From assembly GCA_020696385.1 (NCBI GenBank), contig JAEHCQ010000005.1, positions 8,311-72,310 on the forward strand: a DNA stretch of 64,000 nucleotides, in the 5' to 3' direction. The position numbers and the translations under genes are program-made. This stretch comes from Methanobacteriota archaeon (lineage in GTDB: Archaea; Thermoplasmatota; Thermoplasmata; SG8-5; JAGLSY01). The notes beneath the pieces were generated by a model, which was not told where the DNA came from, did no database searches, and was given only the letters and a program-made list of their open reading frames with translations. Shown in pieces: positions 11,968-50,725 of this stretch. Position 1 is the first letter of the stretch; every line of letters starts with the position of its first letter.

Positions 11968-12041
11968 GCAGGTGTGATCTAGCCTGGCTATGATCTTGGC
12001 CTTCCAAGCCAATCACTCGGGTTCGAATCCCGACACCTGCA
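11968..12041 (+). tRNA. tRNA-Gly(TCC)
   Basis: Acceptor GCAGGTG/CACCTGC-A, anticodon arm TTGGC-CTTCCAA-GCCAA, T-arm TCGGGTTCGAATCCCGA. Confidence 0.96.
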
Positions 12042-12042
12042 T

Positions 12043-12170
12043 ATGTTTTTTATCAAGGGATTCGAACGGAGTTCGACGAGATTTTTCTGAAAGTAGTGAA
12101 GAAAAAGCGAGCATTATTTATTGTCTCGGGCAACCATGCTCACTCGCAGTTTCCATAGAGACACCTGCAT
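12043..12170 (+). repeat. tRNA-anchored structured element ending in an 11-bp duplicate of the tRNA-Gly 3' end
   Basis: GACACCTGCAT at 12032-12042 and 12160-12170; 12064-12113 matches 50624-50673 at 47/50 nt. Confidence 0.85.
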
Positions 12171-35626: not shown

Positions 35627-38600
35627 TTAATTTTTAAATTTCTTAATGTTTATAAGATACATTTCCTCAGTCAAATTACCATCTTTGTAAGCCATCTCTA
35701 TTTTATCTATGATCTCTTGATTAGGATGAGGTGGCTCAGGCTCAATTGCCAGATCATCAGCACAGATCGGGCATTGTAGGCCTGGATCGATCAGGAAACC
35801 ACAAACTGGGCAGATATTTTCGACCTCAGTTGCTTGTTCTTCGTATAGATCATCTTCAGATGATACATCTTCATCAAATGAGGCGTCATCTTCGACAGGT
35901 CCATCATCTTTATTTTTACGAACAAATAGGAATGCCAGGAACAATAATATAATGAGCCAGATCAACATCCCGATGTATATCATCGGGTCTTGGTCCTTTG
36001 ACACATATTCCTCTACCCCATCTTCTGTTTCATCCAGGGGAGCAGGGTCAAATTCATCGAGTACTCCGTCATTGTCATCATCAGTGTCTTCATTGTTACC
36101 AATGCCATCCCCATCAGTATCTATTGATTCATCAGCATCAAATGGGAAAACATCATCAATATCTGGAACTCCATCATTGTCATCATCAGGGTCATCCACA
36201 TCAAGTATACCATCTCGATCATTATCTCCATGAACAACAATGATCTCAATTGTCGAGTTTATATTACCGGAATAATCTTCGACCGTGAAAGTGATACGAT
36301 AAGTTCCAGGGTCTTCAAAGATATATGATATATCATTTTGATAATTATCCAGATGACCTGGATAATCAATTGACCAATAACTATTTGCAATTCCAATATT
36401 GTCTGTTGAATTTGATCCCCAGAGATATGTTGTTTCTCCTTCGATCGTCTCTCTAGGAACATTAATGTCAATATTTGGCTTGGTTGTATCAACTACAAAA
36501 AATAGATCTGCATTCATCGGAGGGGATTCTTGATTGCCAGATATATCCTCTGCGATAGAATAGAATTGATACCAACCATCATTTGGTGCATTGGCCTCAA
36601 CATCATAATAATATGAAGGCGTATAGTTCCATTTTGCATATGTGAAATTATTATGCTCATATTTCCAGTCAGACCAGGTTATATTATCCGCACTGTACCT
36701 TGACCATAGGCTTATGCTCTCATAATAATAATGTACGGCATAAGAATAATTGATATTGACCATTGTGTTCTGCAAACCACTTGTTGAATCAGTAGCACTC
36801 CAAGAAAAATATAGATCCCCAAGATCATGCCAGAAATCTTCTTGAAAGGATAGCTTAGACACAGGATCTGAAGTATCAATACAAAGAGATATGGGTGGTT
36901 CAGAAGGGGATTCTTCATAATTCCCTACTACATCACGTGCTACAGAATATAATTGATAGAAGCCATCATTACTTGGCATTTTAAAAGACCAACTACCATT
37001 ATTTTCCTCCGCATACCTATGTGAAAAATAATCAGTCCATGTTAGATTGTCAGAGCTACGCCTATAATAAATATTAATTTGATCCAATCCAGTCAAATTA
37101 TCATGAGCATCGATTGATAGATTAAATGAACCATTGTTATGATAATATGGTACAGGAATTATCTCTGAGCTTGGATTCAGGGTATCACGAATAGTCTTTG
37201 TCTCTGAACTATTTTTACATATCTCAAAATTCCCATAATTGTCCTCAGATAAAGAATAGAACTCATAATATCCATCACCTTCAGGGAAGTCAAAAAGCCA
37301 ATTCCATTGTGAGATAGAATCCTCATTATATTGTTTCCAGGGAGTCCATGTAATATTAAATGAGCTATGGCGATACCATAATGTAACATTCTTAAGGCCA
37401 AATCCATCCAGATCCTCTGCGGTAGAATTTATAAGTTCAGACTGAGAGTTAATATATCTGGGAATCGATCGTAAAGATGATGTTGGTTTGATATGATCGT
37501 GAACTGGGTTCATCAGTGAATAATTATCACTACTAAATGCGGGATAAGAATCGATATCATATCCCGAATCACCGAATCCATCTGAACCGGATATATTCTG
37601 ACCCGGACCAGACATCAGATCTAAGCCATCATAGTCCGACCAGTAATTTCCCCCGATCGGGTATATGTTATTCCAATAATTTGTTGAATAATAATCATAG
37701 GCACCATAATTATTATCTAAAAATGAATTATGATAGACCATGTTCCAATCTGAATGAGAGAACATTAAGCCTCGAAAGTTATTCCATATTGTATTGTTGA
37801 TTATAAAATTATTAAAACAATCATATAAATATATCCCATAATATCCATAATTATATGGATACCCATTCCCATGTATCAAATTATTAGATATGGATGAATT
37901 TCTCGTACTTTCCATGCATATCCCATAATATTCATTTTCTATCGTATTGTTTTGTATTGTAATATTATTCGAATAACCAGCTAATATCCCACAGGATCCA
38001 TCCATTAATGTGAAGTTCTGAATGATCGAATCTGAACAATTCGCTAAAATGATCTGACCTGCATCAGATGGTATATTAACATCAGTTTGGTTTTTAAGAT
38101 AATATATTGGCAACCCATTGATAGTATTATTGATGAATGAATGAGTATTCCAATCCAATATAATATCATTATACCAGTATCTAATCATGATTCCAGTATT
38201 TATCAGAACATTGTCTTGGATCAGTATATATTTATTGCCGCGGATACCTATACCGACATCATAGTTATCTATTGAATTATTTATTATACTATTATTATTC
38301 CCCGGTTTCATAGTGATTCCAGTATCCCTTGTTCCAGAAAAGATATTGTTCTGTATTATGTTTCTATCACCCTGGCCTTCGATGGAGGTTTCCATAAAAA
38401 GGTTATTTTCAATTACATTATCATTACCAGTGAATGAGACACCTCGATAACTATTATGAGCGATCTGGTTATTTACCACAGTATTATTATTCCCAGTAAT
38501 AATCACTGCGTCCTCTTGATCATAGAGCTTATTATCAAATATCATAAAATTATCTGAGTTGAAAAGTTGAATTCCATTGGAACAATTCTCAATTACAATA

Positions 38601-39484
38601 TCATTGATCTGACCATTTGTACAGAATCCTAGAATGATGCTGCCGTATGTCTCTGTAAAAGTATAATTGGAGAGCACGACATTCTTGCAATCTGCATATA
38701 TTATCTGGCCTGGACCAGTTACATAAGGAGGGGTGTTAGTGTTCTTGAAATAATATATCGGCAACCCTTGAACTAAATTTGTGGTGTAAATATAATGAGT
38801 ATCCCATTCTTCGACTAAGGTTCCATAGATATGAATTCCATTGCTAAGGATATTACCTGAAAATGTATTGTGTTGGGATCGCAACATACGGATATCATCC
38901 CAATTGTTGATACTCCACCAATAGGGAGAAATATGAGTCTCAATCTGATTATTGATGATCAAATTGTAATTGCTTCCATCTAGGAACAATCCATAATATA
39001 CCGAACTAATTTGATTGTTTTCAATAAGGTTATGATCTGAATGAACAGATAGATATATCCCTCTGCTGCAATTATGGATAATATTATTGATAATATCACC
39101 ATAATCAGTATTCCATAGTTGAATCCCAGCAGCTTCCCAATATAATCCACTCCAATTAGAATAAGGAAACATCAATGTACAATTTCGGATAATGAAGTTA
39201 TCTGTCACGTTCCCCAAGTAAATGCAGGGTCCAAAAATGGTTCCATTGATCTCCCAGTTCTCGATCACCCAGGGATTGCCAGCACTCCCATTCCCACTAG
39301 ATACTCCATTAGCAAGGGTAAAATCAGCATTTGAATTTATTCGGATCTCACCGCGAGGTGTAGTTGTAATCACATATGTAGACACATCCTTGGCTTCCGT
39401 ATTATTAGCATTTGGTTCGGTAAATAATATGATGGAACTAAATATCAATAGTACCGATAGCCAAACAGTAAATGCCTTTCTCAT
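35627..39484 (-). CDS. large secreted membrane-anchored protein: NosD/right-handed beta-helix repeats, Ig/PKD domains, TSP3-like Ca-binding repeats, TM, zinc ribbon
   Basis: Signal peptide, NNxI repeats, GGNYWSDY, DDDNDGVPD repeats, TM helix, CPVC..CPIC. Confidence 0.85.
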   Translation of the reverse strand: MRKAFTVWLSVLLIFSSIILFTEPNANNTEAKDVSTYVITTTPRGEIRINSNADFTLANGVSSGNGSAGNPWVIENWEINGTIFGPCIYLGNVTDNFIIRNCTLMFPYSNWSGLYWEAAGIQLWNTDYGDIINNIIHNCSRGIYLSVHSDHNLIENNQISSVYYGLFLDGSNYNLIINNQIETHISPYWWSINNWDDIRMLRSQHNTFSGNILSNGIHIYGTLVEEWDTHYIYTTNLVQGLPIYYFKNTNTPPYVTGPGQIIYADCKNVVLSNYTFTETYGSIILGFCTNGQINDIVIENCSNGIQLFNSDNFMIFDNKLYDQEDAVIITGNNNTVVNNQIAHNSYRGVSFTGNDNVIENNLFMETSIEGQGDRNIIQNNIFSGTRDTGITMKPGNNNSIINNSIDNYDVGIGIRGNKYILIQDNVLINTGIMIRYWYNDIILDWNTHSFINNTINGLPIYYLKNQTDVNIPSDAGQIILANCSDSIIQNFTLMDGSCGILAGYSNNITIQNNTIENEYYGICMESTRNSSISNNLIHGNGYPYNYGYYGIYLYDCFNNFIINNTIWNNFRGLMFSHSDWNMVYHNSFLDNNYGAYDYYSTNYWNNIYPIGGNYWSDYDGLDLMSGPGQNISGSDGFGDSGYDIDSYPAFSSDNYSLMNPVHDHIKPTSSLRSIPRYINSQSELINSTAEDLDGFGLKNVTLWYRHSSFNITWTPWKQYNEDSISQWNWLFDFPEGDGYYEFYSLSEDNYGNFEICKNSSETKTIRDTLNPSSEIIPVPYYHNNGSFNLSIDAHDNLTGLDQINIYYRRSSDNLTWTDYFSHRYAEENNGSWSFKMPSNDGFYQLYSVARDVVGNYEESPSEPPISLCIDTSDPVSKLSFQEDFWHDLGDLYFSWSATDSTSGLQNTMVNINYSYAVHYYYESISLWSRYSADNITWSDWKYEHNNFTYAKWNYTPSYYYDVEANAPNDGWYQFYSIAEDISGNQESPPMNADLFFVVDTTKPNIDINVPRETIEGETTYLWGSNSTDNIGIANSYWSIDYPGHLDNYQNDISYIFEDPGTYRITFTVEDYSGNINSTIEIIVVHGDNDRDGILDVDDPDDDNDGVPDIDDVFPFDADESIDTDGDGIGNNEDTDDDNDGVLDEFDPAPLDETEDGVEEYVSKDQDPMIYIGMLIWLIILLFLAFLFVRKNKDDGPVEDDASFDEDVSSEDDLYEEQATEVENICPVCGFLIDPGLQCPICADDLAIEPEPPHPNQEIIDKIEMAYKDGNLTEEMYLINIKKFKN

Positions 39485-39555
39485 CTTCCTCTTCCTCAGC
39501 CTAGTTTAAGAGTTTAGAGTATTTTAGGGTTGTGGAATATAAGAAAAGAAATAAG

Positions 39556-39813
39556 ATGCGGGGAACCGTGTGAACGATATGCCCTTGGCATGATGTTCAC
39601 ATCGTAGGCCATAAACCCAATTCTCGAAGCTTACGTCTTGCTTCGAGTCCAGATGAAACATAATGGTGGGTTTACGGCAACCGTTTACTACTTTCGAATC
39701 CTATAATGAAAAATGCGGGGAACCGGATTTCGCACCTACACTTCATTGCGGTGCTCTCTCGAATTTACAAGTAAATTCTCGATCGAACTTCGTTCGAATC
39801 CTATAATGAAAAA
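39556..39813 (-). repeat. two tandem tRNA-anchored structured units, each ending in a copy of the tRNA-Leu 3' end
   Basis: 37 bp identical at 39693-39729 and 39793-39829; third ATGCGGGGAACCG at 39556-39568. Confidence 0.9.
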
Positions 39814-39897
39814 TGCGGGGAACCGGATTCGAACCGGCGAATCACTAAGAACTAGACCCTGAATCTAGCGCCGTTGACCAGGCTTGGCTATCCCCGC
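39814..39897 (-). tRNA. tRNA-Leu(CAG)
   Basis: Reverse complement GCGGGGATAGCCAAGCCTGG..CTAGA-TTCAGGG-TCTAG..long variable arm..CCGGTTCGAATCCGGTTCCCCGCA. Confidence 0.96.
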
Positions 39898-39995
39898 ATG
39901 GTGTTATGGATAAGCCCTGTAAATTCAAGAGGTTTATAAAATCTTTGATTGGATTGTATAATTTTCCGCCGATATCCTTATATCATGAAATTATC

Positions 39996-41039
39996 ATGCC
40001 GAATACAATGGCCTCACTTGGCGCACTCAAAAGGAGCATGGCTCTCACCCTGATCATGATATTCGGACTTCTGTTCGTGTTCATCATGCTGATATTCGAA
40101 TTCATGATGTGGTACTACAATGGAACTATCAATATTATCGGCCAGCTTATTTTGATATTCTTCTTTGTCGGCATCTTCATGCTCATACAATGGGCGGTCT
40201 CCCCCGGTATAATAAGATGGGGGTCCAAACTTCAGTATCTAAAGCCCGGAGAATACCAGTGGCTGGAGCAGGAAGTTAGTCAATTGTCAAAACAGGCGGA
40301 TATCCCCATGCCGCGATTGGCCATCTCCCGAGACCCAACACCCAATGCCTTCGTGTTCGGAAGATCAAGAAAGAGTTCCACACTGACTGTCCACACCGGG
40401 CTATTGGAGAAGCTCAATCAGAACGAGATAAGAGGCGTTCTGGCGCATGAGATAGGACATCTGCGTCACAATGATGTCGTTGTCATGACGGTTGTAAGCG
40501 CAATACCCATGCTGGCCTGGATGCTGGCCCGAAGCTTCCTCTGGGGAGGAAGGCGCAACAGGGATGCTGGTGCGATCATCATAGTTGCCATTATCAGTTA
40601 TGTGGTCTACTTCATATCCCAATTACTTATATTGAAGCTGTCAAGACAGAGAGAGTTCTATGCTGATTCTTACTCGGCTGTCGCTACTGGTGATCCGCAC
40701 AGCCTCAGCTCGGCACTTGCCAAGATAACATTCGGACTATCACTATCAAATGAAAAGCCAGGGGCTGCCAGGGCCTTTTATATCGGGGATCCAGTTAGCG
40801 CGAAGAGGGAGATCGCCAGCATCATGCAGAATAAGAACAAGTACGATCTGGATGGAGATGGGGTTCTGGACGAAGGAGAGCTACAGAAGGCCATGGAGGA
40901 GCAGGCGAAGAGTGGGCGCGCCAGGATGGAGTTCATGTCCACCCATCCGTCCACATTCAAGAGGATACTGCTTCTCAAACAGATAGAAACTGACATTGGC
41001 CATGGTGGGGCCAATGCGAATATCTATGATCATATTTGA
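39996..41039 (+). CDS. htpX: M48 zinc metalloprotease HtpX
   Basis: PNAFVFG, LAHEIGH, LSRQREFYAD, STHP; EF-hand-like DLDGDGVLDEGE. Confidence 0.93.
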   Translation: MPNTMASLGALKRSMALTLIMIFGLLFVFIMLIFEFMMWYYNGTINIIGQLILIFFFVGIFMLIQWAVSPGIIRWGSKLQYLKPGEYQWLEQEVSQLSKQADIPMPRLAISRDPTPNAFVFGRSRKSSTLTVHTGLLEKLNQNEIRGVLAHEIGHLRHNDVVVMTVVSAIPMLAWMLARSFLWGGRRNRDAGAIIIVAIISYVVYFISQLLILKLSRQREFYADSYSAVATGDPHSLSSALAKITFGLSLSNEKPGAARAFYIGDPVSAKREIASIMQNKNKYDLDGDGVLDEGELQKAMEEQAKSGRARMEFMSTHPSTFKRILLLKQIETDIGHGGANANIYDHI

Positions 41040-50423: not shown

Positions 50424-50498
50424 GGGCGCGTAGCCTAGCCAGGATATGGCGCTAGCCTTCTAAGCTAGAAGCCAGGGGTTCGAATCCCCTCGCGTCCG
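50424..50498 (+). tRNA. tRNA-Arg(TCT)
   Basis: Acceptor GGGCGCG/CGCGTCC-G, anticodon arm CTAGC-CTTCTAA-GCTAG, T-arm AGGGGTTCGAATCCCCT. Confidence 0.96.
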
Positions 50499-50503
50499 CT
50501 CTT

Positions 50504-50725
50504 TTATTTTTTTAAGATGCGACTTTATCATTTGATCCCACGCATCTTTTTTATCAAACAAATTTGTAAAAGATTCAGGTAATGAGTTTGATTCGATATG
50601 TTTAGAGGACGCGAGGTGGATGAGAACGGAGTTCGACGAGATTTTTCTGAATATAATGAAGAAAAAGCGAGCAAGACCTGGATGCTGAAAGCAGACAGGT
50701 TGCTGATCCCCTCGCGTCCGCTCTT
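50504..50725 (+). repeat. tRNA-anchored structured element ending in a 20-bp duplicate of the tRNA-Arg 3' end
   Basis: ATCCCCTCGCGTCCGCTCTT at 50484-50503 and 50706-50725; inverted copy GGACGCGAGGTGGAT at 50607-50621. Confidence 0.88.

Follow-up and report, generated by a model that had tools for sequence, protein, structure and literature searches.

The window analysed here is a stretch of 64,000 nucleotides (nt) from contig JAEHCQ010000005.1 of a Thermoplasmata archaeon, whose assembly (2.28 Mb in 50 contigs, G000 below) served as source genome. On its minus strand the window carries an intact tRNA-Leu(CAG) gene followed by two short structured units in tandem, each opened by the same spacer and closed by a copy of the tRNA 3' end. 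Both units fall into a large class of palindromic cassettes that contain no genes and are anchored on tRNA 3' ends. An earlier reading made from the letters of the window (the sequence-only reading) had described units of 100 and 157 nt, and spacer plus core gave exactly these lengths on the minus strand; the closing copies of the tRNA end that it saw were found to measure 16 nt in unit 1 and 12 nt in unit 2 (Table 1). Neither unit contains an open reading frame (ORF) of its own of at least 60 amino acids (aa).

All stems named in that reading were present. The minimum-energy RNA fold of unit 1 was a cloverleaf, with GGAU/AUCC as closing helix and TCGAAC/GTTCGA, GAATTTAC/GTAAATTC and GCACC/GGTGC as arms, while unit 2 folded into its three reported stems plus an inner ATGCC/GGCAT hairpin. 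The opening GGATTCG of unit 2 pairs with the tail CGGTTCC, in a register that differs from that of unit 1. Compared with shuffled sequences, unit 1 folds only weakly better (z = -1.7 as RNA and -2.4 as DNA), and unit 2 far better (z = -4.0 and -5.5, respectively). Four copies of the family of unit 2, family B, could be aligned (alignment A3), all at tRNA-Leu genes only; they show compensatory changes, and a G.T wobble is kept in 4/4.

Table 1. Positions of the tRNA-Leu(CAG) array and of two further tRNA loci with cassettes in the 64,000-nt window
Feature	Position	Strand	Basis or remark
tRNA-Leu(CAG)	39814-39897	minus	ARAGORN; Rfam RF00005, 49.6 bits; intact, CCA not encoded
Last 16 nt of tRNA-Leu(CAG), the repeated a, AATCCGGTTCCCCGCA	39814-39829	minus	T-loop to discriminator
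Spacer 1, TTTTTCATTATA, 12 nt	39802-39813	minus	T-rich, terminator-like; between tRNA-Leu(CAG) and unit 1
Unit 1 core, 88 nt, family A	39714-39801	minus	Fold; alignment A1 with consensus structure; covariance model R1, 49.7 bits
Unit 1, a' (GGATT)	39797-39801	minus	
Unit 1, P2 (TCGAAC-GAA-GTTCGA)	39783-39797	minus	
Unit 1, P3 with flanking CGAG/CGAG	39757-39782	minus	
Unit 1, P4	39732-39754	minus	
Unit 1, direct repeat a, AATCCGGTTCCCCGCA	39714-39729	minus	16-nt exact copy of tRNA-Leu(CAG) end
Spacer 2, identical to spacer 1	39702-39713	minus	Sequence
Unit 2 core, 145 nt, family B	39557-39701	minus	Folds; alignment A3
Unit 2, long stem GCCGTAAACCCA/TGGGTTTATGGC enclosing CTCGAAGC/GCTTCGAG	39608-39678	minus	
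Unit 2, GTGAAC/GTTCAC enclosing ATGCC/GGCAT	39569-39601	minus	
Unit 2, direct repeat CGGTTCCCCGCA	39557-39568	minus	12-nt copy of tRNA-Leu(CAG) end
tRNA-Gly(TCC) with family-A unit	11968-12041 (tRNA), 12042-12169 (unit)	plus	Unit end GACACCTGCA; R1 75.7 bits; G002 orthologue present
tRNA-Arg(TCT), MITE-like insertion and family-A unit	50424-50498 (tRNA), ~50499-50601 (insertion), 50607-50720 (unit)	plus	R1 116.1 bits

The last 22 nt of each of the 46 tRNA genes called by ARAGORN in G000 were compared with the 400-nt flanks of the same gene. A sense copy of the tail (local score at least 11) was present downstream of 16/46 tRNAs and upstream of 1/46. One of the 16 downstream cases is merely a neighbouring tRNA-Ser gene, which leaves 15 real cases, with units of 78-310 nt, and bears out the earlier proposal of a family of tiny non-coding structured units behind tRNAs. 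Antisense copies (score at least 9) lie downstream of 14/46 tRNAs and upstream of 5/46. The same pattern, with other interiors, was found at 5/15 and 7/14 of the tRNAs examined in two other families of the order (G005 and G007, respectively). A second tRNA-Glu(TTC) of G000, situated on the 573-nt contig C29, bears a small cassette.

Based on the aligned arms of ten units (A1) and on further copies read directly, a cassette consists of a T-rich spacer, a first arm a', one to three hairpins and a second arm a, in this order. Arm a repeats the tRNA in direct orientation, starting at position ~58/59 and ending with the discriminator (with CCA in bacteria). Arm a' is a contiguous inverted copy of the T-loop and T-stem 3' strand of the upstream tRNA, often reaching into the acceptor 3' strand. 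Both arms match the tRNA in front: a TTCGAAT loop is accompanied by TCGAAC-NNN-GTTCGA, and tRNAs with a TTCAAAT loop carry TTGAACC-GAA-GGTTCA (Ser and Leu of G013, Gly of G021). The suggestion that a generic cassette inserts at any T-arm could therefore not be maintained. Family A comprises, in G000, unit 1 and the units at Gly, Lys, three Arg, Ala-CGC and Glu-CTC; the opening of unit 1 is indeed common to the elements after tRNA-Gly and tRNA-Arg(TCT) in the window, as had been noticed. In this family the sense copy is split at 58/59 by P3 and P4, which are joined by CGAG...CGAGC...GATG, and P2 is built from both halves of the T-loop sequence. From GGAT to the discriminator, 6/10 units measured span 103 nt. 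In the Arg(TCT) unit, a' GGACGCGAGGTGGAT pairs with the entire copied tail ATCCCCTCGCGTCC. Among the 13 copies of G000 with a placeable a', the spacer up to a' measures 11-29 nt in ten and 52-107 nt in three, and all 13 spacers hold a run of four to seven T (T8 in G123). In archaeal transcription such a T-run is a terminator, and the TATA box of a promoter lies at -26, so that spacers of 11-29 nt leave little room for a promoter.

RNAalifold applied to A1 yielded helices P1-P4, with 15/27 pairs changed on both sides. Covariance model R1 gathered 37 units into a second alignment, A2, in which 88.6% of the cells pair versus 73.1% in shuffles, a value that 0/500 shuffles reached. Double changes occur at 23/27 pairs, and structures slid along the alignment pair at most 52.1% of the cells. 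The covariation of the stems, which the sequence-only reading had put forward as a check, is thus present, with figures that lean towards structure because the alignment was fitted to the model. Within the modelled stems G.U occurs 44 times and A.C 16 times, an excess which argues that the tRNA-sense strand folds and which is itself biased by the fitting of the alignment to an RNA model.

The loops of these hairpins are of a distinct type. In 18 bacterial units (see below for their origin), 63 of the 83 hairpins with at least four Watson-Crick pairs are triloops. The same units hold 44 C-GNA-G loops, 18 of them imposed by the search pattern, versus a shuffle mean of 0.23; GNRA was found once and UNCG not at all. 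The density of C-GNA-G is 33 in 5.3 kb of tRNA plus cassette, compared with 11 in 106 kb elsewhere at the same loci. All of these triloops read GNA on the tRNA-sense strand. Among 54 hairpins of 19 archaeal units, 11 are C-GNA-G, where 0.13 are expected. Loops of the d(GNA) type closed by C-G are described as exceptionally stable in DNA in PMC3201870, and PMC13037366 describes the RNA versions as much less stable and the DNA forms as occurring at single-strand initiation sites of phages and plasmids. C-GNA-G loops on the tRNA-sense strand are a DNA-type signature.

Comparison with congeneric genomes showed that the u1+u2 tandem is inherited between species, since an independent congeneric assembly (G002) carries the same tandem at tRNA-Leu(CAG). 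Orthologous family-A units are found in G002 at tRNA-Lys, Arg(CCT), Arg(TCT) and Gly(TCC). The two genomes agree at 96/100 positions of unit 1, against 86% identity across the 1.8-kb region; of the four differences three fall in P3, where two make up a compensatory pair (C-G to U-A). The number of units is not constant: the G002 array has a third unit, and hence four copies of GGTTCCCCGCA, compared with two units in G000. At tRNA-Arg(TCG) a family-A unit is present in G000 only and missing from G001, G002 and G003. A short second unit stands alone at this gene in G001 and G002, while G003 has neither unit and shows a 36-nt insertion in the T-loop at ~58/59, where the repeat begins (L253:1510-1621); this could be a non-canonical intron or an insertion. 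The comparison of orthologous tRNA loci that the sequence-only reading had proposed showed both presence and absence of a family-A unit at this tRNA, and differences in unit number. The Lys and Arg(CCT) units of G000 have a P4 in common which is missing from their G002 orthologues. Taken together, presence and absence at Arg(TCG), unit numbers and P4 differences indicate that units are inherited yet gained, lost and partly exchanged. At tRNA-Gly of G096 a second unit was seen that is identical but truncated. The G002 copy of tRNA-Arg(TCG) (L257) has a 45-nt interruption elsewhere in the gene, and the G000 copy is uninterrupted.

Matches to R1 were obtained in 6/22 genomes of the order (E-value at most 0.01) and, with stricter filters (at most 0.001), in 6/151 sampled genomes of the class, namely two congeneric ones, a third from the order and 3/17 from another family. 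The distant Thermoplasmata copies again lie behind tRNAs and in tandems, and tandems also occur in Verrucomicrobiota; together with the three units at tRNA-Leu of G002 this supports the stacking inferred in the earlier reading. A scan with the 22-nt core pattern GGATKMGAAYRRRGTTCGAYGA, performed on one genome for each of 185,579 species, yielded 31 loci, of which 22 lie within 400 nt of the end of an upstream tRNA on the same strand, and a further locus lies 454 nt from such an end. Five loci are from Thermoplasmata and one is from Alistipes onderdonkii; the rest belong to Verrucomicrobiota (Opitutales, Puniceicoccaceae, Coraliomargarita, Lentimonas). For the eight loci without a nearby tRNA, six look like chance coding matches and two (L038 and L044) have an element-like context with no intact tRNA. 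In 10/22 loci the tRNA tail recurs ~100 nt past the core as an exact 11-nt copy that includes the encoded CCA; in others the copy is degenerate. Bacterial genomes hold one or two core copies each (five genomes checked). Bacterial units are aligned by R1 end to end with E-values of 1e-5 to 0.09, and their interiors are not convincingly alignable with P3/P4. The likeness between G000 and the bacteria covers a', P2 and a, so any homology beyond these parts would be tentative. A metagenome scan with a looser NNN loop gave 11 loci adjoining a tRNA among the 80 loci listed, the rest resembling chance or coding matches, and the pattern GTTCGAYGAGN{10,40}GAGC returned mostly coding noise, being useful within the genus only.

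Regeneration of the tRNA together with a displaced fragment from T-loop to end is the signature of site-specific insertion into tRNA genes. Taken as a set, the palindromic arms, which would rebuild the attachment segment, the strand-specific DNA-type loops, the head-to-tail arrays and the ORF-less units are most similar to sites that work as folded single strands, such as integron attC and CTX-phi. We therefore favour the reading, with a probability of roughly 45%, that the cassettes are non-autonomous DNA elements acting as folded single strands, for which there are candidate enzymes only. A cassette would be gained beside a tRNA by a break-and-join reaction at the segment from T-loop to 3' end, which would leave the tRNA intact and place a copy of its end farther away. 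Activity would reside in the tRNA-sense strand, single and folded, where pairing of a' with a, or with the tRNA end, would restore the attachment segment in double-stranded form. Recombination between direct repeats could then lengthen or shorten arrays such as u1+u2. Candidate enzymes would be the IS200-type Y1 transposase, present in single copy, and a tyrosine recombinase of the host. Of the two origins offered by the sequence-only reading, selfish mini-elements mobilised in trans fit better in view of gain and loss, patchy spread and DNA-type triloops.

Several observations weigh against this reading. The higher conservation of unit 1 than of its surroundings (96% versus 86%) and its compensatory changes would be expected of a functional RNA; alternative sources of this conservation could be gene conversion or template switching that corrects palindromes. 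The a' arms of Arg-TCT and Ser-CGA rebuild a full acceptor helix, as a tRNA-like RNA would, and how a' comes to match each new tRNA is left unexplained. In addition to the bias in the G.U count, the folding z-scores of the 37 units separate neither DNA from RNA nor the two strands, the sense strand being lower in 22/37 with both parameter sets. The core pattern gave no match in 2.9 million viral contigs and a bacterial unit none in plasmid and phage collections (blastn), so that no free or autonomous form was seen. Hits to the integrase family (PF00589) in G000 number four, on contigs C47 and C1 only and none on the contig of the window. The same genome yielded no Cas1 (PF01867) and no GIY-YIG hit, and the bacterial downstream neighbours include 0/7 recombinases, one more neighbour being a histidine kinase.

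With respect to enzymes, the search that the sequence-only reading had suggested was thus negative for a linked tyrosine recombinase and also for a linked reverse transcriptase, and positive for one IS200-type HUH transposase elsewhere in G000. This single Y1 transposase (PF01797, 100 bits) is situated on contig C50. The gene is mostly single copy and is found in 16/22 genomes of the order and in 4/5 bacterial carriers; such genes are common. No common ends were seen when the flanks of tnpA on C50 were compared by eye with units 1 and 2. A TnpB zinc-ribbon hit was not obtained in G000; a guide of the TnpB/omega-RNA type was ruled out on this ground and because scaffolds differ between the families. 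A casposase and a GIY-YIG enzyme were likewise ruled out as helpers in G000, the genome having neither Cas1 nor GIY-YIG. One verrucomicrobial genome contains a small GIY-YIG ORF (65 bits) within cassettes of the same arrays, which indicates that ORF-bearing cassettes exist.

Some arrangements around these enzymes were recorded in addition. At the end of contig C47 (171707-172454) a tRNA-Glu(TTC) has a tyrosine-recombinase ORF immediately downstream in the opposite orientation, an arrangement like that of an ordinary integrated element truncated where the contig stops. On C50 (1231-2357, L078) two tRNA-like genes of 87-88 nt come after tnpA, both combining a Ser-like acceptor stem and a long variable arm with the anticodon GAA (Phe). 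Part of the 3' end of tnpA is repeated in the space separating the two. In two congeners (G001, L206; G002, L207) tnpA also has a similar tRNA-like gene next to it. Small GIY-YIG ORFs (~90-150 aa) were found directly downstream of tRNAs at L031:6267-7500, L219, L221 and L214 (G160, G023), with 15 GIY-YIG hits in G160, some in tandem. At tRNA-Ser these ORFs are built into the same cassette arrays. No copy of the tRNA end accompanies those downstream of tRNA-Ala and tRNA-Cys, and a ~40-nt repeat flanks the tRNA-Ala ORF.

A wider proposal is that tRNA ends are the platforms of a cross-domain cassette system with integron-like or CTX-like logic, with arms re-templated on each tRNA, with ORF-less and ORF-bearing members (the latter with small GIY-YIG nucleases, in Verrucomicrobiota) and with no known recombinase. 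The attachment site of each tiny element would be a folded single-stranded image of the segment from T-loop to 3' end of the tRNA gene, and capture beside the tRNA would be head to tail. We consider it possible rather than probable and advance it tentatively.

The foremost competing explanation, which we consider somewhat unlikely, is that the units encode small structured RNAs linked to tRNAs. Read-through from the tRNA promoter would produce a transcript in which a' and a form a helix resembling acceptor and T-stem, RNase P and RNase Z would cut it, CCA would be added, and the function would lie in the conserved four-way junction, serving as a decoy, a sponge or a protein-binding RNA. The second origin offered by the sequence-only reading, co-transcribed small RNAs cut out by tRNA enzymes, is of this kind; no positive evidence for it was found, and the T-run spacer weakens it. 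The RNA-like features are covariation in all helices with more G.U than A.C, orthologues that are conserved above the local background and carry compensatory changes, ends placed as in a tRNA gene (every unit stops exactly at the discriminator, then a T-run follows), and a full acceptor-like helix in some copies. Several a' arms copy the 5' acceptor strand (GGACGCG in Arg-TCT; also Ser-CGA, Thr and Glu), and the complete 7-bp helix is present in Arg-TCT and Ser-CGA and absent from Gly and Leu unit 1. The recurring 103 nt from GGAT to discriminator in family A would also suit an RNA, as would the P3 apices of the Arg and Gly copies (CUGA...UGAUGA/UGAAGA), which look K-loop-like by eye. Against these features stand the runs of four to eight T between tRNA and a', with short spacers too small for a promoter of the unit's own. 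The acceptor part of the tail is unpaired in many copies (Gly, Leu unit 1, most bacterial), which leaves no minihelix there, and in some copies a' also pairs the discriminator, unlike in a tRNA. GNA triloops of the DNA type prevail, GNRA and UNCG being nearly absent, the distribution is patchy with units that come and go, the K-loop-like apex is not conserved across the family, and Rfam holds no match.

The Rfam check called for in the sequence-only reading gave no matching family: with Rfam 15 only tRNA passes, beside noise below the thresholds, in the window at the gathering threshold, at 39400-40000 at an E-value of at most 10 and in eight bacterial loci at an E-value of at most 1. The best non-tRNA match was sX4, with 42.9 bits versus a cut-off of 70, over a bacterial tRNA-Ser and the start of its unit. 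Sub-threshold matches to this Xanthomonas small-RNA family were seen at the verrucomicrobial loci L028:6815-6962, L026 and L032, and the sX4 model itself may contain a tRNA-Ser-like part. Likenesses to a hammerhead (GAUGAG..CGA), a C/D box, a K-loop and a bulge-helix-bulge intron were rejected by eye against consensus motifs, because the TC core variant has Watson-Crick pairs in place of the G.A pairs, spacings misfit and apices are unconserved. An archaeal C/D box small RNA is defined by C, D', C' and D boxes with guides of ~12 nt; by eye, some Arg copies have box-like words at a spacing of ~21-23 nt and the TC variant has none.

Cassettes might also be mutational by-products, formed when replication stalls at highly transcribed tRNAs and template switching creates a sense-inverted-sense triplication that unequal recombination then spreads and trims, without any machinery or function. 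The order of tRNA end, inverted a' and direct a is what two template switches are expected to leave, by analogy with duplication/inverted-triplication/duplication events, and the arms invariably correspond to the local tRNA. Some G007 copies have an a' that fits the tRNA end better than its own a, and arrays with identical spacers resemble the outcome of unequal crossing-over. Interiors that are homologous across tRNAs, genomes and domains (GGATGAGAAC..GTTCGACGAG and the CGAG/CGAGC junction), the strand-specific GNA loops and the higher conservation of units than of flanks are left unexplained by such a process, and we regard it as improbable.

More improbable still are decayed scars of integrase-borne islands or proviruses, in which attL and attR remain and nearly everything between them has been deleted. 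A direct repeat from T-loop to 3' end is in keeping with integrases of the T-loop sublocation, as described in 10.1101/2020.11.02.365908 and in the Islander abstract, and one tRNA-Glu of G000 has the tyrosine-recombinase ORF directly downstream. No 13-nt tail copy was found 450 nt-40 kb downstream of any of the 46 tRNAs of G000, so there is no continuum of sizes and the cassettes are not the small end of the range of ordinary islands. Deletions that arose independently would not yield one shared structured and covarying interior at many tRNAs in two domains, the inverted arm is given no reason, and integrase fragments were found neither inside nor beside the units. Least probable of all is that the right half of family A (sense 52-58, P3-P4, sense 59-73) represents the 3' portion of a tRNA gene with an intron in its T-loop, kept after repair or duplication: the interruption of the sense T-arm copy exactly at 58/59 and the 36-nt insertion at the same T-loop position in tRNA-Arg(TCG) of G003 would suit this, against which the junctions show no bulge-helix-bulge (by eye, and none in the minimum-energy fold), other families have an uninterrupted sense copy (G005 Thr) and the same core occurs in bacteria, which lack such splicing.

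Compared with known systems, the cassettes of the favoured reading appear as tRNA-targeting insertion elements in miniature, in ORF-less and palindromic form. Like tRNA islands of tyrosine integrases, they leave an intact tRNA and a displaced 3' copy starting in the T-loop, as seen at 15 tRNAs, and form tandems. They differ from such islands in their size of 70-310 nt, in lacking integrase and cargo, in the extra inverted copy and in the conserved hairpin core, and G000 has no large islands with cassette repeats. The Islander description likewise has islands regenerate the tRNA, with a displaced 3' fragment marking the far end and with tandem occupancy, and 10.1101/2020.11.02.365908 lists a 'T-loop sublocation' among integrase attachment sites.

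Integron attC sites and CTX-phi use folded single-stranded sites with one active strand and conserve structure over sequence; integron cassettes are arranged head to tail, and ORF-less ones exist. Our cassettes resemble these sites in their head-to-tail arrays at one platform, their imperfect palindrome and their lack of ORFs, single-strand activity being presumed here. They are unlike integrons in that the platform is a tRNA end and not attI or dif, no IntI-type gene is adjacent, the arms copy the platform, and the repeat is 12-20 nt compared with the 7-nt integron core.

Relatives of casposons occur in Thermoplasmata's own phylum, Thermoplasmatota. Duplication of a tRNA end and tandem arrays are features shared by casposons and cassettes. 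Casposons measure kilobases and carry Cas1, PolB and terminal inverted repeats, and in A. boonei their duplication overlaps the tRNA by only 5 bp; the units have no ORF, and neither end is an inverted repeat of the other. According to PMC5137440, casposons target the tRNA 3' end near the T-psi-C palindrome with a ~15 bp duplication and form tandem arrays, new units being placed next to the tRNA.

The miniatures of IS200/IS605 and the REP/REPIN elements are short, gene-less, rich in hairpins and single-stranded on one strand, and a single-copy Y1 helper is possible for them. They have no target duplication and family-wide ends, in contrast to the tRNA-specific ends and flanking direct repeats of the cassettes. 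A Y1 transposase, as such a helper would require, is present in G000, a co-occurrence that by itself carries little weight. Small RNAs released by tRNA processing are known as well, for example from dicistronic transcripts of tRNA and C/D box small RNA. Cassettes are like them in lying immediately 3' of the tRNA, in the same orientation, and in being structured, and unlike them in the terminator-like T-run before the unit, the absence of spaced C/D boxes (by eye), the lack of an Rfam family and the DNA-type loops.

The proteins that define integrase islands and casposons are missing from the cassettes, and the inverted arm is new. The class is apparently undescribed, as it was found neither in Rfam 15 nor in the literature covered, outside which lie most subscription journals and supplementary motif lists of large RNA-motif surveys such as PMC5737381.

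tRNA genes are the classic landing sites of mobile DNA, and only kilobase-long, integrase-bearing elements have been catalogued there. In three genomes of this Thermoplasmata order about a third of the tRNA genes are occupied by cassettes (15/46, 5/15 and 7/14). If mobile, the cassettes would form a new and very small class of tRNA-targeting elements in archaea and bacteria, would mislead island finders that rely on displaced tRNA fragments, and would bear on the origin of attachment sites and of tRNA T-loop introns. As a natural system, they would further provide a compact means of inserting DNA site-specifically at a universal sequence. If they are RNAs instead, they would represent a new RNA class, spanning both domains and connected with tRNA maturation. 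In both cases the family is open to direct tests in relatives of the bacterial carriers that are in culture (Alistipes, Coraliomargarita, Lentimonas).

At the tRNA-Arg(TCT) locus of the window, the T-rich spacer between tRNA and cassette is occupied by a repeat of ~85-100 nt which resembles a miniature inverted-repeat transposable element (MITE). It consists of two nested inverted repeats, AGATGCG..CGCATCT followed by ATCAAAC..GTTTGATTCGAT, and gave nine blastn high-scoring segment pairs in G000, including C11:13690-13745, C11:14003-14055 and others on C33 and C47. Some copies sit in other tRNA spacers and within the Ser(GGA) cassette. The orthologous Arg(TCT) spacer of G002 is without this repeat. 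The gene directly downstream of the tRNA-Leu array in the window is an ORF of 1285 aa (35627-39484, minus strand) with a signal-peptide-like start. In G002 the array is followed by a different gene, which places a synteny break at the array.

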